Source of the DNA: Lysobacterales bacterium
Lineage (GTDB): Bacteria > Patescibacteriota > Microgenomatia > Levybacterales > UBA12049
Reading direction: 5' to 3'
Assembly: GCA_035536575.1 (NCBI GenBank)
Contig: DATLNW010000014.1
Location: 1 to 37,915 of the forward strand
DNA length: 37,915 nucleotides
How positions within the stretch are numbered: the stretch's first letter is position 1; each line of letters starts with the position of its first letter. The translations under genes were made by a program, and so were the position numbers. Shown here piece by piece: positions 3,847-27,560 of the stretch. The notes below the pieces were generated by a model, which worked only from the letters and a program-made list of their open reading frames with translations, did not search any database and was not told the DNA's origin.

Positions 3847-3940
3847 TAGTGCCGATGATAGTTTTCATACGGCATCCTCGATGGCTTTCGGCCATCGGGA
3901 TTTTCAGTCGGGATCCCGATGGAAAATACCATCGGGAAAA
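3847..3940. repeat. cluster of consecutive short hairpins (CGATGG/CCATCG units), family G
   Basis: CGATGGC-TTTCG-GCCATCG; TCGGGATCCCGA palindrome; CCCGATGG-AAAATA-CCATCGGG. Confidence 0.8.
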
Positions 3941-4707
3941 AAGATAAAATTATGAAGAGTTTAAAAACAATAAAAAAGAAACATTCAGGACGTGATGCAT
4001 CAGGACAGGTTGTTGTCAGACATCAGGGTGGAGCGCACAAGAGATTTCTGAGAAGCATTGATTTCAAAAGAGATAAATTTGGAATTAAGGGAAAGGTTGA
4101 AGCAATAGAATATGATCCGAACAGAACATGTGATATTGCCTTGGTTCATTATACCGACGGGGAGAAGCGATATATTTTGAGTCCCGTTGGACTTAAGATT
4201 AATGCTATAATAGCATCCGGTAAAAACGCTGAAGTTTCTTTGGGTAATTCGCTGACTCTTTCTGAGATGCCCGTTGGATCGATTGTCCACAATATAGAAA
4301 TAACACCTGGAAAGGGCGGACAGATCGCAAGAGGGGCAGGAACTGGGGCAATAGTAACAGCTAAAGAAGGAGATTTTGCTCATCTCAAGCTTCCATCAGG
4401 TGAAATGCGCAAATTCCGACTGGACGCTCAGGCAACAATTGGGCAACTGGGAAATGTTGACTGGAAGAATGAAGTTATTGGAAAAGCAGGCAGAGCCCGC
4501 AATATGGGTAGACGGCCAACTGTTCGGGGAGTTGCTCAGAACCCACGATCTCACCCGCACGGAGGAGGAGAAGGACGATCTGGAATTGGCATGCCGGGTC
4601 CAAAAACATATGCAGGTAGGTCGGCTGTTGGGAACACACGTAAAAAGAAAAAGTATTCAGATAAATATATTCTAAAGCGCAGAAAGACTAAGAGAGGACA
4701 GAAATAA
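3919..4707 (+). CDS. rplB: 50S ribosomal protein L2 (start may be ATG 3952; N-terminus short)
   Basis: RHQGGAHKR, GNxxxLxxxPxGxxVHNIE and [11 protein letters not shown] motifs; ATG 3919 lies inside a hairpin. Confidence 0.95.
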
Positions 4708-4708
4708 T

Positions 4709-4993
4709 ATGGGAAGAAGTATTAAAAAAGGACCATATATAGACGAAAAATTAATGAAAAAGGTTATGCTGCAAAAAGCCGCCAATAACATGGTGGAGAT
4801 TAAAACATGGGCAAGAGCCTGTCAGATTCCACCGGAATTTGTCGGACACACATTTATGGTTCATAACGGTAAGCATTTTATAAAAGTTCTGGTTTCAGAA
4901 AATATGGTTGGATACAGACTTGGTGAATTCTCACCAACCAGAATGTTTAGAGGTCATGGAAAAGTTGTGTCACGTGAGGTAAGTAAAACCTAG
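4709..4993 (+). CDS. rpsS: 30S ribosomal protein S19
   Basis: GRSIKKGPY...HNGK...GHKLGEF-like pattern. Confidence 0.97.
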
Positions 4994-5056
4994 GGATTAG
5001 TGGTTAGGGCTTAGTGATTAGTACTAAAACCTAAAACCTAAAACCTAAAACCTAAA
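4994..5056. repeat. family A heptad hairpin, copy A1
   Basis: (NNNTTAG)x4 arm, GTAC centre, (CTAAAAC)x4-5 arm; fills the rpsS-rplV spacer up to the ATG. Confidence 0.85.
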
Positions 5057-5058
5057 TT

Positions 5059-5499
5059 ATGCAAGTTCGAGCAGTAGCAAAATCAGTAAGAATGAGTCCA
5101 AGAAAAATCCGACTAGTCGCGGACGCAGTCCGCGAGCTTTCAATTGAGGATGCGTTCTTGGTACTTGCGGCAACGCCAAACCGGGCAGCAGGACCGATTG
5201 TTAAGACCCTTGAGTCAGCAGTTGCAAATGCGGTGACCAACAATAACCTGGAAAAACAGAATTTGGTAATTGACAGCATCATGGTAAATGAGGGGCAAGC
5301 AATGAAAAGATTTCATCCATCATCCCGTGGTCGGGTGCATCCTTACAAAAAAAGAAGTAGTCACATTACAATCGTTTTGAGCGAAAAAGCTGTCAAGAAG
5401 GCAATCGTCGCAAGAGTTGATGACAAAAAAGCAGAAAAAGAGGATAAGAAGGAAACAGCTTTTATTAAAAAATCAGCAGCTAAAGGAGGTAAAAAATAA
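5059..5499 (+). CDS. rplV: 50S ribosomal protein L22 with K-rich tail
   Basis: RMSPRKIRLVADAVR motif; operon position. Confidence 0.96.
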   Translation: MQVRAVAKSVRMSPRKIRLVADAVRELSIEDAFLVLAATPNRAAGPIVKTLESAVANAVTNNNLEKQNLVIDSIMVNEGQAMKRFHPSSRGRVHPYKKRSSHITIVLSEKAVKKAIVARVDDKKAEKEDKKETAFIKKSAAKGGKK

Positions 5500-6143
5500 T
5501 GGGACAAAAAATTAATCCACATGTAGTAAGACTTGGAACGGTATTTAGCTGGTCAAGCCGTTGGTTTGATGAGAAGAAGTATAAAGAAACCCTTTTTCAG
5601 GACTATACGCTCAGAAAAATGCTTATGGATAAGCTGAGAGCAGCTGGGATTGCCAAGGTTGAGATTGAGAGATCAATTAATAGCTTGAAAATTATTATAT
5701 TTGTTTCACGTCCCGGAATTGTAATCGGACGGGGAGGTTCAGGACTTGAGGATCTTAAGAAAAATATAACAAAGTTTTTCATCAAACAAAAAGGCACAAA
5801 TATGCCAAAACTTGATATCCGCGTTGAGCCCGTAAAAGAACCAAATCTTGATGCATATCTGGTCGCAACAAGCATCTCAGATCAGCTGATAAGACGTCTT
5901 CCTTATAAAAGGGTGCTCAACAGCACGGCTGAGCGGGTTATGGCATCAGGCGCCAAAGGAGTTAAGCTGTTACTAACAGGAAGAATCGCAGGCTCAGAGA
6001 TTGCAAGACGGGAGAAGATACGTCTTGGGACAGTTCCTCTGTCAACAATTAGAGAAAATATCGCTTACTCAAGTTACGCTTGCTTGACCAAAAAAGGATA
6101 CATAGGAATAAAGGTTTGGATCAACAAACCGGAGGAGAAATAA
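5499..6143 (+). CDS. rpsC: 30S ribosomal protein S3
   Basis: MGQKINP start, KH domain GRGG motif; TAATG overlap with rplV. Confidence 0.97.
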
Positions 6144-6147
6144 AATT

Positions 6148-6561
6148 ATGTTAATGCCAAGAAGACAAAAGTATAGAAAGCAAATGAGAGGATCGATGAA
6201 AGGAAATGCAACCCGGGGCATTAAGCTTTCATTCGGAGACTTTGGATTACAAACCCTTGAAACAGCCTGGATATCGGCACGCCAGATTGAGGCAGGCAGG
6301 CGCGCAATTACCCACTACACCCAAAGAGGAGGGAGAGTCTGGATCAGAGTTTTTCCCGATAAACCGATCAGTAAGAAACCGGCTGAGGTTAGAATGGGTG
6401 GAGGAAAAGGAGATACGCACGAATATGTAGCACCGGTCAAACCGGGAAGAATGCTTTTTGAGATCTCAGGCGTGACACACGAAATTGCAAAAGAAGCTCT
6501 TAGATTGGCAGCGCATAAATTACCGGTCAAAACAAGATTTATATCAAAAACAGATAAATAA
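6148..6561 (+). CDS. rplP: 50S ribosomal protein L16
   Basis: [15 protein letters not shown] start typical of L16. Confidence 0.97.
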
Positions 6562-6564
6562 AAT

Positions 6565-6951
6565 ATGAAAAATAATATTAAAAAAGAATTACATAATAAA
6601 TCTATATTAGAGCTTAGAGCGCAGTTAAAAGAAGCAAAAGAGGCAAAACGCGTATTGAATCTTGATCATCAGATGGGAAAGCTCAAGAATACCAGCGCGA
6701 TTAATCTAAAAAGAGTCGAGATTGCGGTAATGAGTACGATTATTAATGAAAAATTAGCTGAGGAGAAGCTTGAGCAAGTAGTAAAAGCAGATGATGCTTC
6801 GGCAGGCTCAGGACAAGCAAGCTCAGCACAAGGCAAGAAAGAAGTTTTGACAAAAGAAAAATCAGCGTCAAAAAAGACCGCCTCCGTTCCCGCCAACGCT
6901 AAAGCTGCGGCGGACAAGAAAACTTCGGCGGTCAAAGGAGGTAAAAAATGA
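6565..6951 (+). CDS. rpmC: 50S ribosomal protein L29 with about 60-aa C-terminal extension
   Basis: operon position; ELRAQLKEAKEA helix typical of L29; A/K-rich tail. Confidence 0.9.
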   Translation: MKNNIKKELHNKSILELRAQLKEAKEAKRVLNLDHQMGKLKNTSAINLKRVEIAVMSTIINEKLAEEKLEQVVKADDASAGSGQASSAQGKKEVLTKEKSASKKTASVPANAKAAADKKTSAVKGGKK

Positions 6952-7190
6952 GTAAAGTACTAACAGGAAAAGTTGTTTCACTTAAAATGCAAAACACCGT
7001 ATTGGTTGAGGTTGTTCGTCGGACTCCTCACAAGCTGTATGGAAAGCTTTTGAAGAGAAGTAAAAAATACAAAGTTGATCCAAATGGATTTACACCGATA
7101 TTGGGTAATACGGTTAAAATTGAGGAAACAATACCACTCTCAAAAGACAAGCATTTTAAATTAATTGAGATTGAGGATAAAAAAATATGA
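6948..7190 (+). CDS. rpsQ: 30S ribosomal protein S17
   Basis: [16 protein letters not shown] pattern; ATGA overlap. Confidence 0.96.
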
Positions 7191-7561
7191 TTCAGCAAAG
7201 AAGTATATTGGTATCAGCAGATAACTCGGGTGCAAAGCAGCTTATCGTAATACATGTTTACGGTGGGTCAAAGCATAAATTCGCCAGAATTGGAGATGTT
7301 ATTCACTGCGTAGTTAAGGAAGCCAATCCAAATGGTCAGGTCAAGGACAGTGAAATGGTCAAAGCTGTAGTTGTCAGAACCAGAAAAGAATTCAGAAGAG
7401 CTGATGGCTCATATATACGTTTTTCAGACAATGCAGCTGTTGTTATTGATAACGCAAAAGATAAAAACGTCAGGGGAACTAGGATATTCGGACCAATCGC
7501 ACGCGAAGTTAAAGACCGGGGATTTGCAAAGATTGCCAGTATGGCAACTGAAGTACTTTGA
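7187..7561 (+). CDS. rplN: 50S ribosomal protein L14
   Basis: [17 protein letters not shown] start typical of L14. Confidence 0.98.
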
Positions 7562-7657
7562 TGCGAATTCATGCGAATTGTTAGTGCGAATAGATGCGAA
7601 TAGAAAGAAGTAATTTTTATTTGGATTTATTCGGAGTAAAAATTCGGATACATTAGT
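7560..7657. repeat. family C hairpin, copy C1 (ATGCGAAT units, about 10-nt period)
   Basis: left arm ATGCGAATTC ATGCGAATTG ..GTGCGAATAG ATGCGAATAG; right arm TATTTGGA TTATTCGGA ..AATTCGGA. Confidence 0.8.
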
Positions 7658-7660
7658 ATT

Positions 7661-7966
7661 ATGAAATTAATAAAAGGAGACATCGTAAAAGTAGTAGCAG
7701 GAAAAGATAGCGGTAAAACCGGAAAGATTGAACGCACTTATTCAAAGACAGGAAGAGTTCTTGTTGAGGGAGTAAATCAATATAAAAGACATATTAAAGC
7801 AAAAGCAGCCGGTCAGAAATCAGAAATTATTACCATAACAAAAAGCTTGCCTGTTTCAAATGTTGCCCTTCTATGTCCGAAATGTAAAAAGCAGACAAGG
7901 ATTGGCTATAAGGTCTTAAAAGAAGGAAAGAGCAGGATTTGCAGGAAGTGTAATAAAGAAATATGA
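7661..7966 (+). CDS. rplX: 50S ribosomal protein L24 (CxxC...CxxC zinc-ribbon form)
   Basis: KGDIVKVVAGKDSGKTGKI KOW motif. Confidence 0.96.
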   Translation: MKLIKGDIVKVVAGKDSGKTGKIERTYSKTGRVLVEGVNQYKRHIKAKAAGQKSEIITITKSLPVSNVALLCPKCKKQTRIGYKVLKEGKSRICRKCNKEI

Positions 7967-8541
7967 CAGATTTACAAAAAACATATAAAGAAGAGGCAGT
8001 CGTTAAGCTTCAAAAAAAGCTTAATGTTAAAAACCCGATGAGTGTTCCCAAACTCTCAAAGATTGTTGTTAACATGGGAGTCAAAGACGCCGTTGCTGAC
8101 AAGAAAAACGTTGAGAAGATGAGTGTTGTCCTCTCGCAAATTACAGGGCAAAAGGTCAAGACGACCCGTGCGAAAAAAGCTATTGCGAGTTTTAAGCTCA
8201 GAATTGGCGACCCGATTGGACTTGTTGCTACCTTGCGAGGGGAGCGGATGTATGATTTTTATGATAAGATTGTCAAAATCGTTCTTCCAAGAATCAAAGA
8301 TTTTAGAGGAGTCAGAAGAACCAGTTTTGATAAATCAGGAAATTACACGTTGGGACTTCATGAATACTCAGTATTTCCTGAGATTGATCCGGGAAGTGTT
8401 GAGAGACTTCAGGGTATGGAAATAGTGATTGTAACAACAGCTGATAATACCAATGACGCAATAGCGCTTCTTGAAGAATTGGGAATGCCATTCACCAAAG
8501 ACCTGCCTGCCGGCAGGCAGGAAAAGCTAAAGAGTAATTAA
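7963..8541 (+). CDS. rplE: 50S ribosomal protein L5
   Basis: L5 core (GLHEYSVFPEID); ATGA overlap with rplX. Confidence 0.97.
   Translation: MTDLQKTYKEEAVVKLQKKLNVKNPMSVPKLSKIVVNMGVKDAVADKKNVEKMSVVLSQITGQKVKTTRAKKAIASFKLRIGDPIGLVATLRGERMYDFYDKIVKIVLPRIKDFRGVRRTSFDKSGNYTLGLHEYSVFPEIDPGSVERLQGMEIVIVTTADNTNDAIALLEELGMPFTKDLPAGRQEKLKSN
8502..8521. repeat. perfect 20-nt GC-rich palindrome inside the rplE 3' tail
   Basis: CCTGCCTGCCGGCAGGCAGG, encodes LPAGRQ. Confidence 0.95.
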
Positions 8542-8588
8542 GTAGAATGTATGGTATAATTCAAGGCTAGAAGAAAGTCTTGAGGAAT

Positions 8589-8653
8589 ATCAAAGATTAA
8601 AAATCAAATATTAAAAATATTTTTGATCTTTTATATTTAATTTTTTATATTTT
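8589..8653. repeat. family B AT-rich heptad hairpin, copy B1
   Basis: ATCAAAG ATTAAAA ATCAAAT ATTAAAA / ATATTTT TGATCTT TTATATT TAATTTT; 65 nt identical to B2. Confidence 0.9.
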
Positions 8654-8659
8654 TATAAT

Positions 8660-8845
8660 ATGGCTAAGAAATCAAACGTAGTTAAATCACAAAAAAAAGC
8701 AAAATTCTCAACAAGAATTGTTAATCGCTGCGCAATTTGTGGTAGATACAGAGCTTACTACAGAAGATTTGGACTGTGTAGAATTTGTTTTAGAGAAAGA
8801 GCGATGAAAGGAGAGTTGCCGGGCGTGCTAAAAGCCAGCTGGTAG
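8660..8845 (+). CDS. rpsN: 30S ribosomal protein S14, zinc-binding type Z
   Basis: 61 aa, CAICG...CRIC cysteine pairs. Confidence 0.96.
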
Positions 8846-8847
8846 AA

Positions 8848-8915
8848 CTAGGTATTAGTAATAAGGGTTTAGTGATTAGTACTAACCCCTAAAACCTAAG
8901 CCCTAAAAACTAAAC
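8848..8915. repeat. family A heptad hairpin, copy A2
   Basis: ..TTAGTGATTAGTACTAACCCCTAAAACCTAAGCCCTAA..; ends 3 nt before the rpsH ATG. Confidence 0.85.
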
Positions 8916-8918
8916 ATT

Positions 8919-9299
8919 ATGTATCACGATTTTGTAATTCAATTAAAAAATGCGGCAATGGCCCGTAAAAAAGATATCGTAACGCCTTACGCGAATTTAA
9001 ATAAGGCAATCGGAAAAGCGCTTATTAAAGAAGGGTTTCTCGAGACTGTTAAAGAAGAAACAGAGGACGGCAAGAAGTCTCTAAGCATCCGCCTTCGTTA
9101 TCAAAGACGAAAACCTGCAATTACAGATTTGCTCCTGATCTCAAAACCATCTCTTCGTAAATACGTATCAGCTGATGAGATCGTCAGAATTCAGGGAAAG
9201 GCAACAGTAGCTATTTTATCAACAAACGCAGGTGTCCTATCAGGAAAGGAGGCAATAAAGAAGGGTGTTGGGGGCGAGCTTTTATTCAAGATCTGGTAA
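8919..9299 (+). CDS. rpsH: 30S ribosomal protein S8
   Basis: operon position; LSTNAGVLSGKEA motif. Confidence 0.96.
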   Translation: MYHDFVIQLKNAAMARKKDIVTPYANLNKAIGKALIKEGFLETVKEETEDGKKSLSIRLRYQRRKPAITDLLLISKPSLRKYVSADEIVRIQGKATVAILSTNAGVLSGKEAIKKGVGGELLFKIW

Positions 9300-9333
9300 C
9301 AGGTGTTGTTTAAGTTCATAGTCATACTTTAAT

Positions 9334-9398
9334 ATCAAAGATTAAAAATCAAATATTAAAAATATTTTTGATCTTTTATATTTAATTTTTTATATTTT
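9334..9398. repeat. family B AT-rich heptad hairpin, copy B2
   Basis: 65-nt perfect identity with 8589-8653. Confidence 0.9.
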
Positions 9399-9403
9399 AA
9401 CTT

Positions 9404-9958
9404 ATGTCAAAAATCGGAAAATTACCAATTTCTATTGCAAGCGGAGTTAGCCTTACAACTGAGGGAAAAACAGTTCATGTCACAGGTCCCAAAGGAGTAT
9501 TTACAGTTAATAAGCCTGAGGGAATTGCACTTGAGGTAAATGAGGGGGTTGCAACGGTAACAGCTAAAAATCAAAATGACAAAAAAATAAGATCGCTTTT
9601 TGGAATGTTCCGGGCAAATCTTGCAAATGCTGTAAAAGGAGTAGACTTGGGATTTGAGAAAAAGCTTGAAATGACGGGGGTTGGATATAGAGCTCAAATG
9701 CAGGGAGCTGATCTGGTTCTTTCAGTTGGCTACTCACACCCTGTGAAATTTACACCAAAAGAAGGAATTAAGCTGTCTGTTGCTGACAATGTTATTTCAG
9801 TCGCAGGAGTTGATATAGCACTGGTTGGAGAATTGGCAGCTGAGATAAGATCAGTTCGCCCGCCTGAGCCATATAAAGGAAAAGGAATAAGGTATCAAGG
9901 GGAGCATGTCAGAAGAAAAGCCGGTAAAGCTGCAAAAGCAGCAGGAGCCACCAAGTAA
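9404..9958 (+). CDS. rplF: 50S ribosomal protein L6
   Basis: SKIGKLPI start; PEPYKGKGIRY motif. Confidence 0.97.
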   Translation: MSKIGKLPISIASGVSLTTEGKTVHVTGPKGVFTVNKPEGIALEVNEGVATVTAKNQNDKKIRSLFGMFRANLANAVKGVDLGFEKKLEMTGVGYRAQMQGADLVLSVGYSHPVKFTPKEGIKLSVADNVISVAGVDIALVGELAAEIRSVRPPEPYKGKGIRYQGEHVRRKAGKAAKAAGATK

Positions 9959-10030
9959 ACAATTAACAGTTCACAATTGACAATTAACAAAAGAAAGTTA
10001 ACTGTTAAGTGTGAATTGTAAAAAGTTAAA
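9959..10030. repeat. family I heptad hairpin (ACAATTN / GTTAANN units)
   Basis: ACAATTA ACAGTTC ACAATTG ACAATTA ... GTTAACT GTTAAGT GTGAATT GTAAAAA GTTAAAA. Confidence 0.8.
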
Positions 10031-10033
10031 ATT

Positions 10034-10378
10034 ATGAATATTAAAAATACAAGATTAAAAAGACAAACTAGAATCAGGAAAAACGTTGTTGCTCATTCGG
10101 ACCGGGTACGACTTTGCGTATTCCGTTCAAATAAATATATCTATGCTCAAATCATAGATCAAAAAGGTGATACACTGATGGGTATTTCTGAAAAAGTTTT
10201 GGCAGCAAAAGGAAAAGCAACACCAACTGAAAGAGCAAAAGAGCTCGGTGTGGCAATTGCCAAGTTGGCAATTTCCAAAAAAGTTAAAGAAGTCGCTTTT
10301 GATAAGGGAAGATTTTCATATCACGGGAGAGTTGAGGCAGTAGCAACTGGTGCTCGAGAAGGAGGTTTGAAATTCTAA
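10034..10378 (+). CDS. rplR: 50S ribosomal protein L18
   Basis: RLCVFRSNKYIYAQIID motif. Confidence 0.97.
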   Translation: MNIKNTRLKRQTRIRKNVVAHSDRVRLCVFRSNKYIYAQIIDQKGDTLMGISEKVLAAKGKATPTERAKELGVAIAKLAISKKVKEVAFDKGRFSYHGRVEAVATGAREGGLKF

Positions 10379-10887: not shown

Positions 10888-10894
10888 TAAAAAT

Positions 10895-11344: not shown

Positions 11345-11434
11345 ATATTAAATATTAAAAATACATATTAAAAATAAAATATTTTTGATCTTTGATTTGT
11401 ATTTTTGCTTTTTAATTTTTGATATTTGATTTTT
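11345..11434. repeat. family B-like AT-rich heptad hairpin, copy B3
   Basis: ATATTAA ATATTAA AAATACA TATTAAA .. / GATCTTT GATTTGT ATTTTTG .. Confidence 0.7.
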
Positions 11435-11436
11435 GT

Positions 11437-12723: not shown

Positions 12724-12728
12724 AATTT

Positions 12729-13957: not shown

Positions 13958-13964
13958 TTCTTAC

Positions 13965-13980
13965 TACCAATATATTGGTA
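13965..13980. promoter_or_regulatory. perfect 16-nt palindrome upstream of map
   Basis: TACCAATATATTGGTA, 22 nt before the map ATG. Confidence 0.3.
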
Positions 13981-14002
13981 TATTTGCACTGAAGTTTTAC
14001 AA

Positions 14003-14785
14003 ATGATTAATTACAAAACTGCAAAAGAGATTGAAATAATGAAGACCGGAGGCCATATATTGGCTGAGGTTTTAGCTGATGTGATGAGTGCTATAAAACC
14101 TGGAGTTACTGAGTTGGAACTAGATAAATTAGCAGAAAAATTAATAAGAGAAAAGGGCGGGGAGCCCGGTTTTAAAAAAGTAAATGGATACCATCACACA
14201 ATTTGTATGTCTACAAATGATGCTGTTGTTCATGGAATTCCGGGAAATTATAAGTTTAGAGCGGGAGATGTCGTAGGTGTTGACTGCGGGGTATTTTATA
14301 AGGGGTTTCATACGGATATGGCTGAAACTCGGAGAGTCTTGGAGATTAAAGATCAAAGATTAAAGATCAAAGATAGCGAGGAGGAGGTTGAGAAATTTTT
14401 GAAGATAGGTAGAAAAGCTTTAGATGCAGGAATTGAGCAAGCTGTTATTGGGAATAGGGTTGGACATATATCTAAAGTTATTCAGGATATTGTTGAAAAA
14501 GAAGCTGGGTATTCAGTTGTCAGAAGTTTGATCGGCCATGGGGTAGGGCGGGAGCTTCATGAAGAGCCTGAAGTGCCGGGTTATTTAAACGGTAAAATTG
14601 AGAAAACGCCATTGCTTCAAGAAGGCATGACAATCGCAGTTGAGGTGATATACAACATGGGTACAAAAGATGTTGTGCTGGATCATGACGGCTGGACGAT
14701 AAGGTCAAAAGATGGAAGCATGGCAGGACTTTTCGAGCGCTCAATTGCCATCATAAAATCCGGCCCGCTGATATTGACAGCTTGA
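14003..14785 (+). CDS. map: type I methionine aminopeptidase
   Basis: metal ligands in DxVGVDCG, GHGVGRELHEEP, AVEVIY and ERSI contexts. Confidence 0.95.
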   Translation: MINYKTAKEIEIMKTGGHILAEVLADVMSAIKPGVTELELDKLAEKLIREKGGEPGFKKVNGYHHTICMSTNDAVVHGIPGNYKFRAGDVVGVDCGVFYKGFHTDMAETRRVLEIKDQRLKIKDSEEEVEKFLKIGRKALDAGIEQAVIGNRVGHISKVIQDIVEKEAGYSVVRSLIGHGVGRELHEEPEVPGYLNGKIEKTPLLQEGMTIAVEVIYNMGTKDVVLDHDGWTIRSKDGSMAGLFERSIAIIKSGPLILTA

Positions 14786-14812
14786 TAAATCTGAAATAAT
14801 CCTCCATGCATT

Positions 14813-14839
14813 TTGCCGAATGAGGGCTTCTGCTATAAT
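14813..14839 (+). promoter_or_regulatory. promoter of the HD gene (extended -10)
   Basis: TTGCCG-15 nt-TGCTATAAT; ATG 6 nt downstream. Confidence 0.5.
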
Positions 14840-14845
14840 TTTCTC

Positions 14846-15358
14846 ATGGATGACAATATAAGACAAATTCTTAAAGAAAAATTGCATGGAGCTCATGATT
14901 ATTCCCACATTGAACGAATTTTAAAATATGGGCAAAAGATCAATGCAGTCCACAAAGGGAATTGGAAAATTATTGAAGCAGCATTACTTCTTCATGAGAT
15001 AACAAAAAATGATTTATCAAGTATTAAAGAATACTTATCGGATTTTACAGATGAAGAAATTGCAGAAGTAACATATTGCATAGCCAGACATTATGATTTC
15101 GTAGATAAACCTACTAGCTTGGAGGGTAAGATTGTCCAAGACTGTGATATTTTAGACATGCTGGGAGCAGTTGGGATAGCAAGAGGTTTTGTTGCATCTG
15201 GCGAGAAGGGTTTGAATTTAGTAGAAGCAAAAGATGAGTATAAAAAGAAAAGATTAATGGTGATTGATCAATTGAATTTAGATGAATCTAAAAAGATGGC
15301 AGAAGATAAGTCAAAATTTACAATATTATTCTTCGATACTATAGAAGGAGAAATATAA
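14846..15358 (+). CDS. HD-domain phosphohydrolase
   Basis: H..HD (GAHDYSH), LLHEI, ARHYD, DCDILD motifs. Confidence 0.8.
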   Translation: MDDNIRQILKEKLHGAHDYSHIERILKYGQKINAVHKGNWKIIEAALLLHEITKNDLSSIKEYLSDFTDEEIAEVTYCIARHYDFVDKPTSLEGKIVQDCDILDMLGAVGIARGFVASGEKGLNLVEAKDEYKKKRLMVIDQLNLDESKKMAEDKSKFTILFFDTIEGEI

Positions 15359-15389
15359 TTATTACCTAAGGAGCTGTATCGATGCTTTA

Positions 15390-15427
15390 TTTTCCTCTTT
15401 GTAATTTTGAGCCTGGGGTGGTAGAAT
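15390..15427 (+). repeat. direct repeat copy 1 flanking hicBA (contains the promoter)
   Basis: TTTTCCTCTTTGTAATTTTGAGCCTGG..; TTGTAA-17-TAGAAT, hicB ATG 9 nt downstream. Confidence 0.85.
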
Positions 15428-15436
15428 AAATTTAAC

Positions 15437-15763
15437 ATGAAAGCACAAAAATTTCCATTTCGATGTATTGTCTATCAGGAAAAAGACGATTCATTTACCG
15501 GAATATGTCTTGATCTGGATATTGTCGAGGAGGGGCACGCAAGTCTTCAGGAAGCGATTCTTAGTATTCATGACGCGATTGAATCACACATTCAAGCTGC
15601 CGCAAAATTGGGATATCCTAAAGAGCTCATGTCCCGTCCCGCGCCAAAAGAATATTGGGACAGGCTTGATGCGCTTGTTCATGCAAAACCTCAGAAATTA
15701 GACTCTTTGCCTTTTCAGTTTTTCACCACTAGTTCATATCCATCTTCCCCAAGCTATGTCTAA
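15437..15763 (+). CDS. hicB: HicB-family antitoxin
   Basis: N-terminal HicB-like fold signature (F..IVYQEKDDSFTGICLDLD..EGHASLQEA); 8-nt overlap with hicA. Confidence 0.75.
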   Translation: MKAQKFPFRCIVYQEKDDSFTGICLDLDIVEEGHASLQEAILSIHDAIESHIQAAAKLGYPKELMSRPAPKEYWDRLDALVHAKPQKLDSLPFQFFTTSSYPSSPSYV

Positions 15764-16001
15764 ATACAGACCTCTAAAGTACCGCGAAGTTGTAAAAATT
15801 CTCAACAACCTTGGTTTTAAAGCAGAACCTGGAAGAGGCACTTCGCATCAGACATGGACTTTGAATAGAAACGGTAAGAATTTAGCTGTAACGATATTTT
15901 TTCACGGATCAAACCTTGAATTCAGGCCTGGAACACTAAATTCCATTATAAGGCAGTCCGGATTTTCAAAAGACGAATTCTATAAAGCTTTGAAGAAGTA
16001 G
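15756..16001 (+). CDS. hicA: HicA-family mRNA interferase toxin
   Basis: YREVVKILNNLGF...GTSHQTW...H....L.PGTLNSIIRQSG pattern. Confidence 0.8.
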   Translation: MSKYRPLKYREVVKILNNLGFKAEPGRGTSHQTWTLNRNGKNLAVTIFFHGSNLEFRPGTLNSIIRQSGFSKDEFYKALKK

Positions 16002-16009
16002 CTTAGTTG

Positions 16010-16047
16010 TTTTCCTCTTTGTAATTTTGAGCCTGGTTTGCTATAAT
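16010..16047 (+). repeat. direct repeat copy 2 (infA promoter)
   Basis: same 27-nt core as 15390-15416; TTGTAA-17-TATAAT, infA ATG 6 nt downstream. Confidence 0.85.
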
Positions 16048-16053
16048 GTCTGA

Positions 16054-16272
16054 ATGCCTCATCAGGGGTCTTTTGAAACAGATGGAGAAGTCATTGAAGC
16101 GCTGCCGAATACTTTATTTAGAGTAAAGCTTGCCGATGGGTCACTGGTACTTTGTCATCTATCAGGAAAAATGCGGATGCATTTTATAAAAATACTGCCT
16201 GGTGACAGGGTAAAACTTGAGATGACGCCGTATGACCAGGGACGGGGCCGGATAATGTTTAGATACAAGTAG
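16054..16272 (+). CDS. infA: translation initiation factor IF-1
   Basis: [32 protein letters not shown]1-like IF-1. Confidence 0.97.
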
Positions 16273-16335
16273 GAATTAGTGGTTAGGTGTTAGTGATTAG
16301 TACTAACCCCTAAAACCTAAGCCCTAAGAACTAAC
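16273..16335. repeat. family A heptad hairpin, copy A3
   Basis: GGAATTAGTGGTTAGGTGTTAGTGATTAGTACTAACCCCTAAAACCTAAGCCCTAAGAACTAA. Confidence 0.85.
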
Positions 16336-16336
16336 T

Positions 16337-16450
16337 ATGAAAGTACAAGCAAGTGTTAAGAAAAGATGTATGAAATGTAAAGTGATTAGGCGTTCAGGCG
16401 TTGTGCGGGTGACTTGTGAGAATCCAAGACACAAACAGAGACAGGGGTAG
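16337..16450 (+). CDS. rpmJ: 50S ribosomal protein L36 (not in the ORF track; 37 aa)
   Basis: hand translation [37 protein letters not shown]. Confidence 0.93.
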
Positions 16451-16555
16451 AGGACATGCGAATTATCACGAATTTACATGCAAATACATGCAAATTTTTA
16501 GATATTAGCATAAATTAGAATATAATTTGTAGAAATTAGCAAATCAATAAATAAA
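16451..16555. repeat. family C hairpin, copy C2
   Basis: CATGCGAATT ATCACGAATTT ACATGCAAAT ACATGCAAAT / ATTAGCATA AATTAGAAT .. AATTAGCAA. Confidence 0.8.
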
Positions 16556-16558
16556 TAT

Positions 16559-16966
16559 ATGAGAGTTGCAAGTGTTACAATACCGGACAGTAAAAGAATG
16601 GATATTGCTTTGACCTATATTTATGGAATAGGAAGAAGTAATGTTTTGCCAATTTTGGAAAATTCCAAAGTAGACGGAGCAAAAAAAGCAAAAGATCTGA
16701 CAGAAGACGAAGTAAAAAGAATCACCAAAGTTCTTGAGACTTACAAAATTGAAGGAGATTTAAAAGCAGATATAGCAGCAGACATAAGACGTCTTAAAGA
16801 ATCAGGTTCATATCGGGGAATCAGACATACCCGTGGTTTACCATCACGCGGACAGAGAACCCGCTCAAATGCCAGAACAAAAAGAGGCAAGAGAGTCACA
16901 ATTGGAGCGATTAAAAAAGAAGTAGCAGCAAAGATGGAAGTAGCAGCAAAGGCAAAGGGTAAGTAA
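16559..16966 (+). CDS. rpsM: 30S ribosomal protein S13
   Basis: ALTYIYGIGRSN, GSYRGIRH motifs. Confidence 0.97.
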   Translation: MRVASVTIPDSKRMDIALTYIYGIGRSNVLPILENSKVDGAKKAKDLTEDEVKRITKVLETYKIEGDLKADIAADIRRLKESGSYRGIRHTRGLPSRGQRTRSNARTKRGKRVTIGAIKKEVAAKMEVAAKAKGK

Positions 16967-16967
16967 T

Positions 16968-17372
16968 ATGGCAAAAGCAGCAGCAAAAACAACAACAAAG
17001 GCCAAGAAAAAAGCAGTAAACAACGTTACTGATCACGGACGTGTTTATGTGACATCAACTTTTAATAATACCCTTATCACAGTTACAAATGATAAAGGGG
17101 ATACTCTTGGCTGGAGTTCTTCAGGACACAAAGGATTTAAGGGAGCTCGGAAATCTACTCCATATGCAGCAACGGTTGCAGCAGAAGATGTCGTCAAAAG
17201 AATTATTGAAAAAGGCTTGAAGTCTGCTGACATATTTATAAAAGGACCAGGCAACGGGCGGGAATCATCACTTCGCGGAATTAAAACATCAGGACTTATG
17301 ATCAGTTCAATCTCAGATATAACACCAATGCCGCATAACGGACCAAGAGCGAAGAAAAAACGGAGAGTATAA
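16968..17372 (+). CDS. rpsK: 30S ribosomal protein S11
   Basis: FNNTLITVTNDKGDTLGWSS, GPGNGRES motifs. Confidence 0.97.
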   Translation: MAKAAAKTTTKAKKKAVNNVTDHGRVYVTSTFNNTLITVTNDKGDTLGWSSSGHKGFKGARKSTPYAATVAAEDVVKRIIEKGLKSADIFIKGPGNGRESSLRGIKTSGLMISSISDITPMPHNGPRAKKKRRV

Positions 17373-17374
17373 GG

Positions 17375-17475
17375 ATATGCGAATTACTACGAATTGCATT
17401 CGAATTTAATGCAAATTTTAATAAATATTCGCATGAGATTAGCATATAATTAGTAGCAATTAGCATTACATTTTA
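17375..17475. repeat. family C hairpin, copy C3
   Basis: ATATGCGAATT ACTACGAATT GCATTCGAATT TAATGCAAATT / ATATTCGCAT GAGATTAGCAT ATAATTAGTA GCAATTAGCAT. Confidence 0.8.
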
Positions 17476-17478
17476 ATT

Positions 17479-18084
17479 ATGGCAAGATATACAGGACCAA
17501 AACATAAATTAGCAAGACGCGAGGGGATAAATATCCTTGAGAAAACGTCTGCTTCTCTGATGCGAAGACTTAACACACCTCCTGGCGTGCATGGAAAAAA
17601 GGCAGGCAGACGCAGGCCTTCTGAGTTTGGAACACAGCTTCGTGAAAAACAAAAGGCAAAAGTAATGTATGGACTATTTGAGAGGCAATTTAAGCAAATG
17701 GTCCAGACTGTTTCGGCTCAAAAAGGGGATACCGAAGAACTATTGCTTTCACTTCTTGAGAGAAGACTTGATAATATTGTCTATAGGCTTGGTTTTTCAA
17801 AATCCAGAATGATGGCACGCCAAATTGTAGTTCATGGACATGTAATGGTAAACGGTAAAAAAATGAGCATACCCTCGTATACTGTTAAAGAAGGGGATGT
17901 CATCACGATAAGTGAGGCTATGATGAAAAATCCTGATATCATAAAACTCCTTGCTGAGAAAACAGAAACAATAGATTTCTTGGATAAGAAAGGGCCTGCG
18001 GGAAAGCTTAAAAGAATGCCCAGACCTGATGACATCATGCCGCCATTTAGTACACGACAAATCATTGAATATTACTCTAGATAA
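17479..18084 (+). CDS. rpsD: 30S ribosomal protein S4
   Basis: MARYTGPK start; S4 domain RLDNIVYRLGF. Confidence 0.97.
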   Translation: MARYTGPKHKLARREGINILEKTSASLMRRLNTPPGVHGKKAGRRRPSEFGTQLREKQKAKVMYGLFERQFKQMVQTVSAQKGDTEELLLSLLERRLDNIVYRLGFSKSRMMARQIVVHGHVMVNGKKMSIPSYTVKEGDVITISEAMMKNPDIIKLLAEKTETIDFLDKKGPAGKLKRMPRPDDIMPPFSTRQIIEYYSR

Positions 18085-18101
18085 TGCTATAATAGGTTCT
18101 T

Positions 18102-19028
18102 ATGGACGAATACATTTTTAAAGTTAAAGAAATTGAATCAACCCCAGACTACGGGGAATTTGCCATTGAACCACTTGAGCCTGGTTATGGGCACACAATG
18201 GGAAATAGTCTGAGACGCGTTCTCTACACAACAATCCCAGGATCTGCTGTGACACAAGTACGAATTACCAATGTAAAGCACAAATTCTCAACTCTTCCCG
18301 GACTTAAAGAAAACATAATCGATCTTCTTCTAAATATCAAAGAGCTTAATTTCCGCTTAGTCGGAGCCAAAACAAGTGAGACTGTAAAGCTTTCCGTAAA
18401 AGGCACCAAGAGAATAACAGCAAAAGACGTTGAGTTGACAGAAGGTGTTGAAGTAGTTAATAAAGATCAATATATAGGCTCACTCTCAGGGGATAAGTCC
18501 AAACTCGAAATGGAGCTTACAATTGAGAAGGGATATGGCTACTCACTTTCTGAGGAAAGAAAAGCAGCAGCGCTTGGAACAATAACCATTGATGCTGTAT
18601 ATACTCCCATAAGAAGAGTTACATACACAGTAGCAGCAACACGTGTCGGACGTCGAACTGACTTGGATAAGCTGATTCTTAAGATTTGGACCAATGGAAC
18701 AGTATCCCCAGCTGATGCTCTCAGTAACGCTTCAAAGATCTTAGCCTCTCACTTCACTCAAATTTATGAACCAAAGGCACAGCCAGTCGTACCAGAAGGC
18801 GTTGTCTCTACCTCATCAATCTCACAAAGTACGCTTAAAACAACAATTGATGAGCTTGATCTTCCGACAAGAATATATAACAGTCTGAGAAACGGTGGAG
18901 TTGAGACAATTGAGCAATTACTTGCCGTTCCACGTAAGGATTTGGTCAGTATGCGTAATATGGGTGGAAAATCCATTTCAGTAATTGAGGAAAAATTGCA
19001 GGAAAAGGGAATATCACTAACTGCCTAA
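18102..19028 (+). CDS. rpoA: DNA-directed RNA polymerase alpha subunit
   Basis: GHTMGNSLRRVL motif; C-terminal LDLPTRIYNSLRNGGVETIEQL HhH. Confidence 0.96.
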   Translation: MDEYIFKVKEIESTPDYGEFAIEPLEPGYGHTMGNSLRRVLYTTIPGSAVTQVRITNVKHKFSTLPGLKENIIDLLLNIKELNFRLVGAKTSETVKLSVKGTKRITAKDVELTEGVEVVNKDQYIGSLSGDKSKLEMELTIEKGYGYSLSEERKAAALGTITIDAVYTPIRRVTYTVAATRVGRRTDLDKLILKIWTNGTVSPADALSNASKILASHFTQIYEPKAQPVVPEGVVSTSSISQSTLKTTIDELDLPTRIYNSLRNGGVETIEQLLAVPRKDLVSMRNMGGKSISVIEEKLQEKGISLTA

Positions 19029-19034
19029 CAGATT

Positions 19035-19156
19035 AAATCCGAAATTAGAATATCGAAACTCGAAACAAATACAAAATTCTCAAATTCAAAACGTTTTAGA
19101 AATTCGGATTTTGAACATTTGGGATTGTTTCGGATTTCGGACTTCGATATTCGGAT
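19035..19156 (+). repeat. family D heptad hairpin, copy D1 (upstream of rplQ)
   Basis: AAATCCG AAATTAG AATATCG AAACTCG AAACAAA ... GGATTGT TTCGGAT TTCGGAC TTCGATA TTCGGAT. Confidence 0.85.
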
Positions 19157-19168
19157 TTTTTTATTTCT

Positions 19169-19750
19169 ATGAGAAAACAAGTATTTGGAAGACAATTTAA
19201 AAGAGATGCAAATGAAAGAAAAGCAATGTTTAAGAACTTGCTTACTTCTCTTGTTCTTGAAGAAAGGATCAGTACAACTATTGCCAAAGCCAAGGCTATA
19301 AAAAGTGCTGCCGATAAGCTTGTTACTACAGCAAAAAAGGCCCATTCGGCAAGCTCAGGGCAAGGTGGAGATCTTGCCTACAAAGGCCTGCATCCGAGCG
19401 TCAACCAGGACGCTGTTATGAAAATGATATCAGATATCGCGCCACGTTTTGCAACAAGGCAAGGTGGCTATACTAGAGTTATAAAATTGGGCAAAAGGCG
19501 TGTTGCGGATAATGCGCCGATGGCAATTATTGAGTGGACGGAACAGAGTACGGAATTAAGAATTAAGAATTCAGAATTAGGAAAGACTGCTAAGAAAAAG
19601 AAGCCGACAAAAGCAAAAAAGATAGTAAAAGCGCCAAAGGTAGTAACCGCAGAAGCGCCCAAACCAGTTATTGGTAAAAAGGTGGAGGAAAAAGTCCAAA
19701 AGCTAGGAATTTTCAAAAGATTGATAACAAGACAGAAGAAAGGACAATAG
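19169..19750 (+). CDS. rplQ: 50S ribosomal protein L17 with about 65-aa K-rich tail
   Basis: GRQFKRDANERKAMFKNL, GGYTRVIKLGKRRVADNAPMA motifs. Confidence 0.95.
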   Translation: MRKQVFGRQFKRDANERKAMFKNLLTSLVLEERISTTIAKAKAIKSAADKLVTTAKKAHSASSGQGGDLAYKGLHPSVNQDAVMKMISDIAPRFATRQGGYTRVIKLGKRRVADNAPMAIIEWTEQSTELRIKNSELGKTAKKKKPTKAKKIVKAPKVVTAEAPKPVIGKKVEEKVQKLGIFKRLITRQKKGQ

Positions 19751-19752
19751 CC

Positions 19753-19817
19753 AGGGATTAGTGGTTAGGGCTTAGTGATTAGTACTAACCCCTAAAACCT
19801 AAAACCTAAGAACTAAA
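19753..19817. repeat. family A heptad hairpin, copy A4
   Basis: AGGGATTAGTGGTTAGGGCTTAGTGATTAGTACTAACCCCTAAAACCTAAAACCTAAGAACTAA. Confidence 0.85.
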
Positions 19818-19820
19818 TTT

Positions 19821-20255
19821 ATGGATCAAGCAAGCATTACAGCGACAACAAAAATATCAGACATTAAAAGAGTCTGGCACATGATAGATGTTAAGGATAT
19901 GGTCTTAGGACGTATCTCAACTGATATCGCACATCACCTGATGGGGAAGGGAAAGCCCAATTTCGTTCGCAATCTTGATTGTGGAGATTATGTTGTCGTG
20001 ATAAACGCAAAAGAGGTAAAAGTGACCGGGAAAAAAGAAGATCAGAAGAATTATTACAGACATTCAGGCTATCCGGGTGGGTTCAGACAGGAAACTCTCA
20101 AGGAATTAAGAGGCAGAAAGCCTGAGCAGATAATAACCCATGCAGTCAAAGGCATGCTTCCTCAGAACAAATTGAGAGACAGAATGCTAAAGCGCTTATA
20201 TGTATTTGCAGGCAGCGAGCATAAGTACAGTGACAAAATCAAAAATCAAAAATAA
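19821..20255 (+). CDS. rplM: 50S ribosomal protein L13
   Basis: WHMIDVKDMVLGRISTDIAHHLMGK, YYRHSGYPGG motifs. Confidence 0.97.
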   Translation: MDQASITATTKISDIKRVWHMIDVKDMVLGRISTDIAHHLMGKGKPNFVRNLDCGDYVVVINAKEVKVTGKKEDQKNYYRHSGYPGGFRQETLKELRGRKPEQIITHAVKGMLPQNKLRDRMLKRLYVFAGSEHKYSDKIKNQK

Positions 20256-20298
20256 AAAATCAAAAATATTTGATATTTAATTTTTAATATTTGATCTA
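20234..20298. repeat. family B-like heptad hairpin, copy B4 (left arm overlaps the rplM stop)
   Basis: CAAAATC AAAAATC AAAAATA AAAAATC AAAAATA / TTTGATA TTTAATT TTTAATA TTTGATC. Confidence 0.75.
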
Positions 20299-20306
20299 AT
20301 TACCAT

Positions 20307-20816: not shown

Positions 20817-21086
20817 CTACTTATATAACTCATTGTGGGTTCCCAGTTTTAGGAAGTAGGCAACTGTTTTGCTTTCTTCAGTTATTTCTTTGTAAATTGC
20901 TCTCACGTCAGCAGTTATATCAATACTTTTTAGGCCTTCGTATTCGCGCTTAAGGTCATGGTTATTGAGTGAGGGTTCAAAAGGATTTTCTCCAAACAGT
21001 TTTATTTTTTGTCTAAAGTTTTTGCGGATTATTACATGAGCTTGCTTTAGTTTTTTAATAAAACCAGGGCTATATTTTGTTTTCAT
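20817..21086 (-). CDS. RelE/ParE-superfamily toxin
   Basis: 89 aa; HDLKREYEGLKSIDI..DVRAIY...GTHNELY pattern; ATGA overlap with the upstream antitoxin. Confidence 0.75.
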   Translation of the reverse strand: MKTKYSPGFIKKLKQAHVIIRKNFRQKIKLFGENPFEPSLNNHDLKREYEGLKSIDITADVRAIYKEITEESKTVAYFLKLGTHNELYK

Positions 21087-21358: not shown

Positions 21359-21365
21359 TAATATG

Positions 21366-27549: not shown

Positions 27550-27560
27550 CTGTATTTTTT

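Follow-up and report, generated by a model that had tools for sequence, protein, structure and literature searches.

Intervening sequences (IVS) of bacterial 23S rRNA are bounded by an inverted-repeat stem, and the type that carries an open reading frame (ORF) is defined by such a stem around an S23p ORF; how IVS arose and whether they move is not known (PMC4990558). In Coxiella, the IVS stem is a 28-bp inverted repeat, the S23p ORF is preceded by tandem heptamers, and RNase III cuts at the first repeat, the stems of rRNA intervening sequences being RNase III substrates (PMC4990558). In the candidate phyla radiation (CPR), rRNA insertions include ORFs of PF05635, the S23p family, as well as short IVS that lack an ORF (PMC11270868). 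Heptamers are also known as direct repeats that abut start codons without a Shine–Dalgarno sequence (SD) in Beggiatoaceae, cyanobacteria and Bacteroidetes, also in ribosomal protein operons, with no function assigned to them (PMC4679880), and Xanthomonas has 70–75 convergent inverted pairs of GGGAATC arrays near the upstream ORF (PMC4692102). Here, we describe periodic hairpins that occupy spacers of the ribosomal superoperon in a 37,915-nt contig of a Levybacterales bacterium (DATLNW010000014.1, assembly GCA_035536575.1; hereafter the window). We read these spacers as gene-less miniature copies of IVS-like palindromic insertion element families that are common in Microgenomates (CPR), and give this reading a probability of roughly 0.6.

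The first 20.8 kb of the window form one plus-strand series made up of tuf, the S10–spc–alpha ribosomal superoperon (including adk, cmk, map and infA) and rplM–rpsI. Gene identities were checked against NCBIfam and Pfam, and all spacers of the ribosomal operon were extracted. For each spacer, the best autocorrelation lag was compared with 500 shuffles and the folding energy, expressed as a z-score, with 200 dinucleotide shuffles. A sequence-only reading of the window had listed 14 spacers as periodic-arm hairpins, and 13 of them are indeed periodic (p ≤ 0.006). Ten spacers peak at lag 7 or at 14, twice that value (rpsS–rplV, rplE–rpsN, rpsN–rpsH, rpsH–rplF, rplF–rplR, rplO–secY, infA–rpmJ, rpoA–rplQ, rplQ–rplM and rplM–rpsI), and three at lag 10–11 (rplN–rplX, rpmJ–rpsM and rpsK–rpsD). 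The remaining listed spacer, rplW–rplB, shows no periodicity (p = 0.24), and the control spacers tuf–rpsJ, rpsJ–rplC and cmk–map and the two promoter-bearing spacers ahead of infA are likewise non-periodic. The broader statement that almost every spacer longer than 45 nt is of this kind comes down to 13 of 17 here.

A SecY scan over species-representative genomes places the window in Candidatus Levybacteria, the nearest loci being L002 (94% SecY identity), L003 (86%; a complete 1.14-Mb chromosome), L004 (85%) and L005 and L038 (77%). The resulting cross-genome set holds 69 elements from 13 operons of Candidatus Levybacteria (Microgenomates, CPR). The complete relative OY970292.1 was covered as two 20-kb stretches, and syntenic contigs of relatives were sampled for genome regions beyond the ribosomal operon. 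Taxon labels are wrong in some of these records; synteny and identity are nonetheless unambiguous. A best lag of 7 is found in 59 of the 69 elements.

Each element consists of an array of short units, usually 7 nt long with a conserved core of 4–5 nt and a variable linker, then a short centre, then an array of complementary units. In the transcript, this layout is predicted to form a "beaded" hairpin in which helices of 4–5 bp are split by small internal loops. Most of the elements fold better than their dinucleotide shuffles, with z from −6.2 to about 0 in the window. Folds are strong at 7562–7660 (z = −6.2), 9959–10033 (−5.7), 19029–19168 (−3.7), 8542–8659 (−3.6) and 11345–11418 (−3.4), moderate (−1.8 to −2.4) in three family A copies and rpmJ–rpsM, and weak (0 to −1.3) in rpsS–rplV, rpsH–rplF (entire spacer), rpsK–rpsD and rplM–rpsI, the left arm of the last falling within the coding end of rplM. 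Across the 13 operons, 83% of the elements reach z < −2 versus 46% of non-periodic spacers. The order of the arms is not fixed, the G/T-rich arm coming first in only 30 of 55 cases, and right arms are no more perfect than left arms.

The elements of the superoperon all lie on the plus strand, and most of them fall into three sequence families. Family A (TTAG/CTAA cores) has four copies. In the first of these (4994–5058, rpsS–rplV; lag 7 identity 0.76, p = 0; z = −1.3), a left arm of the TTAG-core heptads GATTAGT GGTTAGG GCTTAGT GATTAGT is followed by the palindromic centre TTAGTACTAA, a right arm of (CCTAAAA)x4 and then ATT-ATG, and the TAG stop of rpsS is in register with the heptad array. 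The others are at 8846–8918 (rpsN–rpsH; p = 0; z = −1.8), 80% identical to the copy at 4985–5058, at 16273–16336 (infA–rpmJ; p = 0; z = −2.4) and at 19751–19820 (rplQ–rplM; p = 0; z = −2.4), 91% identical to the first copy. Family B (ATCAAAG/TTTGAT type) also has four copies: 8586–8653 (rplE–rpsN), with the arms ATCAAAG ATTAAAA ATCAAAT ATTAAAA and ATATTTT TGATCTT TTATATT TAATTTT; 9331–9398 (rpsH–rplF); and two B-like elements at 11345–11418 (rplO–secY; lag 7 identity 0.64, p = 0) and 20235–20306 (rplM–rpsI). Family C (GCGAAT type) has three, at 7562–7660 (rplN–rplX; lag 10, p = 0), where ~10-nt units ATGCGAATTN face ATTCGGA-type units, at 16451–16558 (rpmJ–rpsM; lag 10, p = 0; z = −1.8) and at 17373–17478 (rpsK–rpsD; lag 11, p = 0.002; z = −0.9). 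Two elements stand singly: 9959–10033 (rplF–rplR; lag 7 identity 0.66, p = 0), with the arms ACAATTA ACAGTTC ACAATTG ACAATTA and GTTAACT GTTAAGT GTGAATT, and a long CGAAA/TTTCGGA heptad hairpin at 19029–19168 (rpoA–rplQ; lag 7, p = 0) that is followed by a T-run. The family B element at 8586–8653 lies 3′ of an extended −10 box, TGGTATAAT, at 8552–8560, which is conserved in nearly all Levybacteria loci and suggests an internal promoter before rpsN.

The non-periodic rplW–rplB spacer (3847–3951, plus strand) holds three G+C-rich hairpins with inverted 9-mer words CCATCGGGA/TCCCGATGG (z = −3.8). The longest rplB ORF opens at 3919; because relatives begin MKKLKTIK, matching the ATG at 3952 (MKSLKTIKK), the true start is probably 3952, which would make the 33 nt from 3919 to 3951 part of the spacer.

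Elements of the same kind recur outside the ribosomal operon. A plus-strand hairpin at 29338–29432, upstream of the gene at 29474, has 8-nt ATTGNNNN / NNNNCAAT arms (lag 8, p = 0) and a nested G+C hairpin at 29381–29401. A periodic, gene-less ATTG/CAAT hairpin is found on the plus strand at 30909–31004, and a family B-like hairpin upstream of a NUDIX gene on the minus strand at 37503–37599, with the A-rich arm first on the sense strand of the gene. In addition, family B-type heptads (ATCAAAR) lie in frame within genes, where they encode K/I/N/Q-rich stretches: KSKIKNQRSKI at the L4 N terminus (rplD, 2736–2767), EIKDQRLKIKD in a loop of MetAP (map, 14345–14374) and KIKNQK before the stop at the L13 C terminus (rplM, 20235–20255). 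In rplM, the left-arm heptads AATCAAA are the final codons and the stop, and the C terminus departs from that of relatives exactly where the heptads start, the last six codons being family B heptads. The N terminus of tmk in the Daviesbacteria locus L234 is likewise coded by a CAAT arm.

The stem begins a median of 4 nt after the upstream stop codon and ends a median of 13 nt before the next ATG. The sequence-only reading had placed the end of the element 2–12 nt before the ATG, which is true of the repeat units; the predicted stems stop ~12–13 nt before it. That reading was right that the elements leave no SD: one is found at 0 of 12 element junctions in the window versus 7 of 14 tight junctions, and over all genomes at 7 of 69 element junctions versus 166 of 397 short junctions (p = 1.3e-7). 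The companion claim that tightly packed genes have an SD applies to about half of them. Bridging to an SD across the hairpin, in the style of T4 gene 38, was rejected; some junctions do have SD-like words in the final stretch of the preceding gene, but the through-space distance is at least 20 nt. The elements also capture stop codons. Of 30 junctions that hold a TAG-core element, 22 have TAG as the preceding stop, versus 52 of 438 short junctions, and examples with TGA and TAA stops likewise follow the tendency of the stop to be the first unit. In 28 of the 69 elements, every reading frame meets a stop within 30 nt, versus 7.8 expected.

This arrangement could have been shaped by the host. 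Cis-acting RNA hairpins under host selection might unite stop and start, or unmask the leader as the upstream ribosome melts the left arm, serving translational coupling and ribosomal protein stoichiometry or the stability of mRNA segments. The short distances from stop to stem and from stem to ATG fit that view, as does the missing SD; the same geometry is, however, an automatic consequence of insertion into spacers of 1–10 nt. Simple occlusion of the start site, which had also been proposed, finds no support, since with flanks included the pairing probability falls from ~0.7 to ~0.35–0.45 between −10 and +10 of the ATG, and this lower pairing around the start codon argues against it.

Comparison of orthologous spacers reveals that the elements are present in some genomes and absent from others. 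In L002, the spacer is only 1–10 nt long at seven element junctions: rpsS–rplV (4 nt), rplN–rplX, rpsN–rpsH (8 nt), rplF–rplR (4 nt), infA–rpmJ (1 nt), rpmJ–rpsM (2 nt) and rplQ–rplM (3 nt). The rplN–rplX spacer measures 1–12 nt in L002, L003, L005, L038, L010 and L009, and the 47-nt rplE–rpsN spacer of L002 contains no family B element. Filled and empty sites differ by clean insertions, in which a TA/TAR duplication is indistinguishable from the repeat unit. The family present at a given junction also varies from genome to genome. At rpsK–rpsD, it is family C in the window, family A in L002, a TAGTCAT/CCAATGA family in L038 and a CTAG family of its own in L006, and at rplO–secY, L002 and L004 hold a family other than the B-like one of the window. 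A single CTAG-heptad family accounts for ~17 copies within 21 kb in L006. Most junctions are empty in L002 and in many Levybacteria, which evidently cope without the elements, and this counts against a host-selected role.

Whole elements recur at 80–100% identity within the window. The copies at 8586–8653 and 9331–9398 are 100% identical over 68 nt, and the site of the former is element-free in L002. Similarity between genomes is also high: 9331–9398 matches its L002 orthologue at 71 of 73 positions, compared with 19 of 31 in the neighbouring 31 nt of non-element spacer and ~0.6 at four-fold sites, and 4994–5058 matches its L004 orthologue at 63 of 65. Four-fold degenerate sites are 0.36–0.62 identical between the window and L002/L004, which is near saturation. 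Because the elements are far more alike than four-fold sites, something must act on them, whether recent spread, concerted evolution or selection.

That the elements are far better conserved than synonymous sites is a point in favour of host-selected hairpins. So is rpoA–rplQ, which alone among the junctions is long across nearly all Levybacteria; it is periodic in 11 genomes, where at least two different families fill it, and has a T-run at its end. Given that length and the T-run after the stem, this hairpin may have been co-opted, perhaps as an attenuator. Pairing itself gives no such signal. RNAalifold on 13 L006 copies yields 1 compensatory pair in 12, pairing of arms in cis versus in trans shows no copy-specific complementarity (p = 0.81), and sense and antisense strands fold equally well (33 of 69, p = 0.88). 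With covariation near absent, no advantage of cis over trans and equal strands, there is no positive evidence of selection on pairing. The same families also stand at divergent promoters and around PF05635 genes, and we regard host-selected hairpins as unlikely. The empty orthologous sites, the families that swap junctions and the 68-nt copy at 100% identity, together with the lack of copy-specific compensatory change and the equal folding of both strands, instead support well the suggestion of the sequence-only reading that these are selfish repeats tolerated between genes.

The arrays could alternatively have arisen in place, slippage expanding a heptamer beside a stop or start and template switching yielding the inverted arm, all without mobility. 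Right arms are often perfect tandems of variable unit number, such as (CCTAAAA)x4, (CCAATGA)x5 and (CTAAGAA)x6, and array and stop codon share one register. Many bacteria have an excess of heptamer simple-sequence repeats, for which slippage of the polymerase has been proposed as the cause, as cited in PMC4692102. We nevertheless consider such an origin very unlikely, because complex sequences of 65–70 nt recur identically across junctions and genomes and because the arms travel with PF05635 subfamilies through at least four candidate phyla. Slippage probably explains variation in unit number after insertion, but not where the elements come from.

The evidence that links the hairpins to IVS comes from PF05635 genes (23S_rRNA_IVP, "four helix bundle protein", S23p). 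In the relatives L219 and L223, PF05635 genes of ~120 codons sit between two complementary periodic arrays. At the site syntenic to 30909–31004, a PF05635 gene is present in both relatives, flanked by periodic arms whose units belong to other families, and at the site of 37503–37599, L219 has one in ATTG/CAAT arms. Homologue searches with two PF05635 proteins returned 3,429 and 7,260 matches; the best 120 of each are 73–88% identical, many of them on ~1 kb contigs, and those with taxon names belong to Levy-, Davies-, Woese- and Shapirobacteria. All ten Microgenomates PF05635 genes that were read, in ten independent contexts, are bracketed by complementary periodic arrays. The arm unit tracks the protein subfamily: four contexts have the 8-nt ATTGNNNN / NNNNCAAT, five have TTTGAAA/TTTCAAA heptads and one has AAAGTTN. 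The arms accompany particular subfamilies across at least four candidate phyla. For four PF05635 genes in four loci, flank complementarity reaches z = −2.9 to −5.1, whereas 62 other genes have a median of 0.05 (p = 6.5e-4).

The arms of these cassettes reappear without the gene. The hairpin at 29338–29432 is identical at 23 of 25 and ~24 of 29 nt to the arms around the PF05635 gene of L244, and 30909–31004 at 22 of 24 nt to an arm of L224. The ribosomal protein spacers of L002, L003 and L004 match the TTTGAAA arm family, and the rplM–rpsI spacer of L003 agrees at 20 of 20 nt with PF05635 cassette arms of the same chromosome. The spacers of L015 align, more weakly, to AAAGTTN arms, and those of L038 show the AAAGTTN unit by eye. 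Gene-less copies of three PF05635 arm families occupy spacers, two of these copies lying in the window.

Similar cassettes are found further afield. A tblastn search of 72,556 plasmids located the gene almost exclusively in Nostoc-type cyanobacteria, plus two Bacteroidota and one Chloroflexota, and of the 10 four-helix-bundle genes read on cyanobacterial and Chloroflexota plasmids, 7–8 lie between inverted tandem arrays of heptamers, as in (ATTCGTA)x4–gene–(TTACGAA)x4 (z = −12.9). A search of viral contigs for PF05635 genes gave one locus, the phage contig L257, in which heptads of TTAG and CTAA type, like the units of family A, flank the gene. Some PF05635 genes are wedged between functionally related neighbours: cas2 and cas1 on a Nostoc plasmid (L261), fabH and an M20 hydrolase in Bernardetia (L266), a helicase and an N6-methylase in Chlorohelix (L267), and pyrG and tmk in Daviesbacteria (L234). 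This is the same kind of position that the gene-less hairpins take in the ribosomal protein operon.

The hairpin architecture itself exists outside CPR, as judged from the sequences of two loci. A metagenome scan with the family A centre TTAGTGATTAGTACTAA, a pattern that is too short, mostly gave an unrelated high-copy repeat with quite different flanks among the matches listed. The sole relevant locus among them is a Flavobacteria-like contig (L168, 4270–4395, reverse strand), in which a TTAGTGA/CTAACCA heptad hairpin fills the gap between a giant T9SS-type protein with a TAG stop and the ATG of a PorP/SprF-like gene. A viral scan with TTAGTGATTAGTACTAACC found nothing, and one with (CCTAAAA)x4 gave 17 contigs, mostly direct arrays or telomere-like ends, with one true hairpin, in the phage contig L218, where TTTAGG/CCTAAAA arms end at ATT-ATG.

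That the arm unit co-varies with the PF05635 subfamily might also mean that the arrays are bound by an oligomeric protein with affinity for nucleic acids, which would govern how the adjacent cistrons are translated or processed. The binder could be a pentameric PF05635 protein itself, since the L223 protein (ivp223) matches the deposited structure 2RLD, which has five chains, or an RNA binder like HutP or TRAP that reads UAG-N4 repeats; HutP provides a precedent for recognition of such repeats. A conserved core with a free linker in each unit likewise resembles protein sites. Against this, several unrelated unit families occur in one operon, and the window has no such gene. Control of this kind is distinctly unlikely as the whole account, although it is compatible with insertion elements and does not exclude them.

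The elements share with the IVS of Coxiella, Leptospira, Salmonella and CPR rRNA a terminal inverted-repeat stem that encloses a PF05635 gene or nothing. Further common points are the tandem heptamers, which in Coxiella stand just before the S23p ATG, the short ORF-less forms (PMC4990558, PMC11270868) and a sporadic distribution that suggests horizontal transfer. Stems that enclose either a PF05635 ORF or a short loop are found in the relatives, whereas the window holds gene-less forms only. Every copy examined falls outside helix 25/45 of 23S rRNA, the copies here lying between protein-coding genes. The arms differ as well, being long periodic arrays rather than a near-perfect 28-bp stem, with many copies per genome. 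In addition, cleavage by RNase III is known for IVS and would apply here by analogy.

With the known heptamer arrays (STRR, TAACTGA, GGGAATC), the elements share intergenic 7-nt units (59 of 69; family C is an exception, with 10–11 nt) that end a few bases before starts without an SD and often contain stop codons. The TAACTGA sets are direct repeats with one inverted case only, and none of the known arrays is tied to a cargo gene or described in CPR. The elements here are more than simple direct arrays that lack a centre or multi-copy identity: several unit families with defined centres act as discrete multi-copy insertions, and the nearest known form is the inverted pairs of Xanthomonas (PMC4692102). 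The sequence-only reading had recognized tandem heptamers in cyanobacteria and knew of no described class of periodic-arm hairpins between operon genes. Inverted heptamer pairs (PMC4692102) and arrays that abut start codons (PMC4679880) are in fact on record, but in the literature we found no description of such hairpins in CPR, and no tie between heptamer arrays and PF05635 genes beyond the Coxiella IVS.

Other families of short palindromes show partial likeness. Repetitive extragenic palindromes (REP), with their BIME and REPIN arrangements and the associated RAYT gene, are likewise short multi-copy intergenic palindromes that occur within operons, form hairpins in RNA or single-stranded DNA, belong to genome-specific families and have a small, family-specific associated gene. 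In the elements described here, however, the arms are periodic, the associated gene encodes a four-helix bundle without known catalytic activity, and no RAYT or IS200-like gene was seen in the 38-kb window with Pfam. As to the GTAG/CGTC tag of REP, L006 copies begin with CGTC, which is also their repeat unit. Miniature inverted-repeat transposable elements (MITEs) such as Correia/NEMIS, ERIC, RUP and YPAL are, like these elements, non-autonomous, ~60–150 bp long, bounded by inverted ends, co-transcribed and strain-polymorphic, and some MITEs in operon spacers are targets of RNase III or RNase E. They differ in that the arms here are internally periodic and the larger relatives carry PF05635 instead of a transposase. 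In the early mRNA of phage T7, imperfect hairpins between cistrons are cut by RNase III and leave stable 3′ hairpins (Dunn and Studier 1973, as cited in PMC4990558); these offer a possible working analogy for hairpins between cistrons, cleavage in our case being suggested by analogy only, although the T7 sites are unique conserved sequences and not mobile repeat families.

Finally, the hairpins might be intrinsic terminators or attenuators, or guide-RNA arrays of the TIGR (tandem interspaced guide RNA) or CRISPR kind. T-runs do follow the rpoA–rplQ hairpins in many genomes, and TIGR-Tas systems are present in CPR genomes (PMC12045711). A terminator scan flags tuf–rpsJ, rpsJ–rplC and rplW–rplB, yet 0 periodic hairpins. 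The periodic hairpins do not have the G+C-rich stem with a U-tract of an intrinsic terminator; most lack a U-tract, and only rpoA–rplQ has a T-run after the stem in the window. TIGR arrays consist of 36-nt units with two 9-nt spacers beside a tas gene that encodes a Nop domain, whereas the units here are 7–11 nt in elements of 60–140 nt, and Pfam detects no tas or cas gene in the window. As no Rfam family matched any spacer either, both possibilities appear highly improbable.

The mechanism we propose for gene-less copies of IVS-like insertion elements builds on the observed periodic anatomy, insertion polymorphism, multi-copy families, capture of stops, lack of SD and association of PF05635 genes with the arms. 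The elements insert directly after a stop codon, which they often supply themselves, and ahead of the short A/T-rich stretch that leads to the next ATG. Any SD is pushed away by the insertion, and some 12 A/U-rich bases stay unpaired upstream of the start. Downstream cistrons might start without an SD by way of this open ~12-nt leader or by re-initiation. Full-length relatives carry a ~120-aa PF05635 gene in the loop, each subfamily with its own arm unit, in the layout of a 23S rRNA IVS, and families A–D of the window may be deletion derivatives of such cassettes. The PF05635 protein could then be a trans-acting partner that recognizes the repeats, for binding or for spread. In the transcript, the elements are probably RNase III substrates by analogy with IVS; cutting of the stems would part the cistrons of a polycistronic mRNA from one another, with hairpins capping the new ends. 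A possible role in RNA processing or stability, another early suggestion, gains plausibility from the architectural match to rRNA IVS.

Several points weigh against this reading. Direct arm matches to PF05635 cassettes involve only the ATTG/CAAT hairpins of the window and the ribosomal protein spacers of relatives. None of the PF05635 genes found has arms of family A, B, C or D, and the L257 phage arms resemble family A in unit type only (20 of 25 nt). The 38-kb window contains no PF05635 gene and no transposase-like Pfam match, and we know of no catalytic or mobility function of PF05635 proteins. Two gut-phage PF05635 homologues in the phage collection have no periodic flanks, so that the bracketing rule is not universal, and one or two of the plasmid cases are ambiguous. 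The order of events might be the reverse, with PF05635 genes inserting into pre-existing hairpins. Comparison of filled and empty sites leaves target-site duplication and exact ends unreadable because the element ends are themselves repeats, and the 97% identity across saturated genomes could also reflect purifying selection for some role in the host. The operon elements sampled are all on the same strand, which makes orientation relative to transcription and to replication inseparable; one minus-strand case is the element at 37503–37599. Cleavage by RNase III, lastly, is argued from analogy only.

The window has further features of interest. The promoter-like sequence found ahead of infA in relatives (TTGAGCC..N..TATAAT) occurs twice, at 15387–15427 and 16007–16047 (88% identical), and the two copies bracket an inserted two-gene module (ORFs 15437–15763 and 15756–16001), one gene of which encodes a HicA toxin by Pfam. 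Owing to this module and an unannotated 181-aa ORF (14813–15358), the map–infA gap is 1,268 nt versus 35–145 nt. The 168-nt rpsJ–rplC spacer (1604–1771) has a sequence and a predicted multi-hairpin fold in common with L002, L003, L004 and L006 and ends in a G+C hairpin and T8 (1729–1754); it looks like a ribosomal protein leader or attenuator, but has no Rfam match. The motif (CA)TTCGGCA(A/G)GCTCAG recurs in spacers and hairpin centres of relatives (rplW–rplB of L002, rplQ–rplM of L003, rpoA–rplQ of L002 and L012, and ~7880–7895 of L219). In the window, it is translated in frame as part of the C-terminal tails of L3 and L29, which are longer than usual (rplC 2524–2564 and rpmC 6780–6820; 41 nt, 80% identical). 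The motif may be another small repeat.

Downstream of the ribosomal genes, a RelB/YafQ-type toxin–antitoxin pair directly follows rpsI (20817–21394). A G+C-rich hairpin of 109 nt between convergent genes (27550–27658; GTCATTCCCGCGAAGGGCGGGAATCC...) lacks periodic arms; it resembles a bidirectional terminator or a member of another repeat family. A conserved cluster at 28505–36772, with two T4SS-type pilins, a protein with an OmpR-type C-terminal domain and a TrbL/VirB6-like protein, is syntenic in L219, L221 and L223.

The set of hairpins is real, non-random and unusually dense: apparently mobile periodic hairpins in the core operon of a CPR bacterium that bridge IVS, heptamer repeats and REP- or MITE-like palindromes. 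More tentatively, S23p/PF05635 proteins and palindromic arrays of short, mostly heptameric units may be two halves of one widespread selfish system, a generalization that we hold to be possible but doubtful. Each subfamily would recognize its own unit and promote the spread or maintenance of its cassette and of gene-less miniatures, which would insert into operon spacers as well as into rRNA genes, where they are the classical IVS. If true, this would give one explanation for what IVS and S23p are, and for the abundance and start-codon hugging of the STRR, TAACTGA and GGGAATC heptamer repeats in cyanobacteria, Beggiatoaceae, Bacteroidetes and Xanthomonas.

CPR genomes are small (~1 Mb) and tightly packed. 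In the one examined here, one junction in three within the operon that is best conserved and most strongly expressed holds 60–140 nt of apparently mobile hairpin DNA, with the SD lost behind it. This prompts the question of how CPR bacteria initiate translation and deal with polycistronic mRNA. Assembly and annotation are affected as well, through PF05635 homologues left on ~1 kb contigs, stops and protein tails donated by repeats, and mis-called starts such as that of rplB. If the link to PF05635 holds, the function of the IVS protein and the meaning of bacterial heptamer repeats would become testable by simple experiments.

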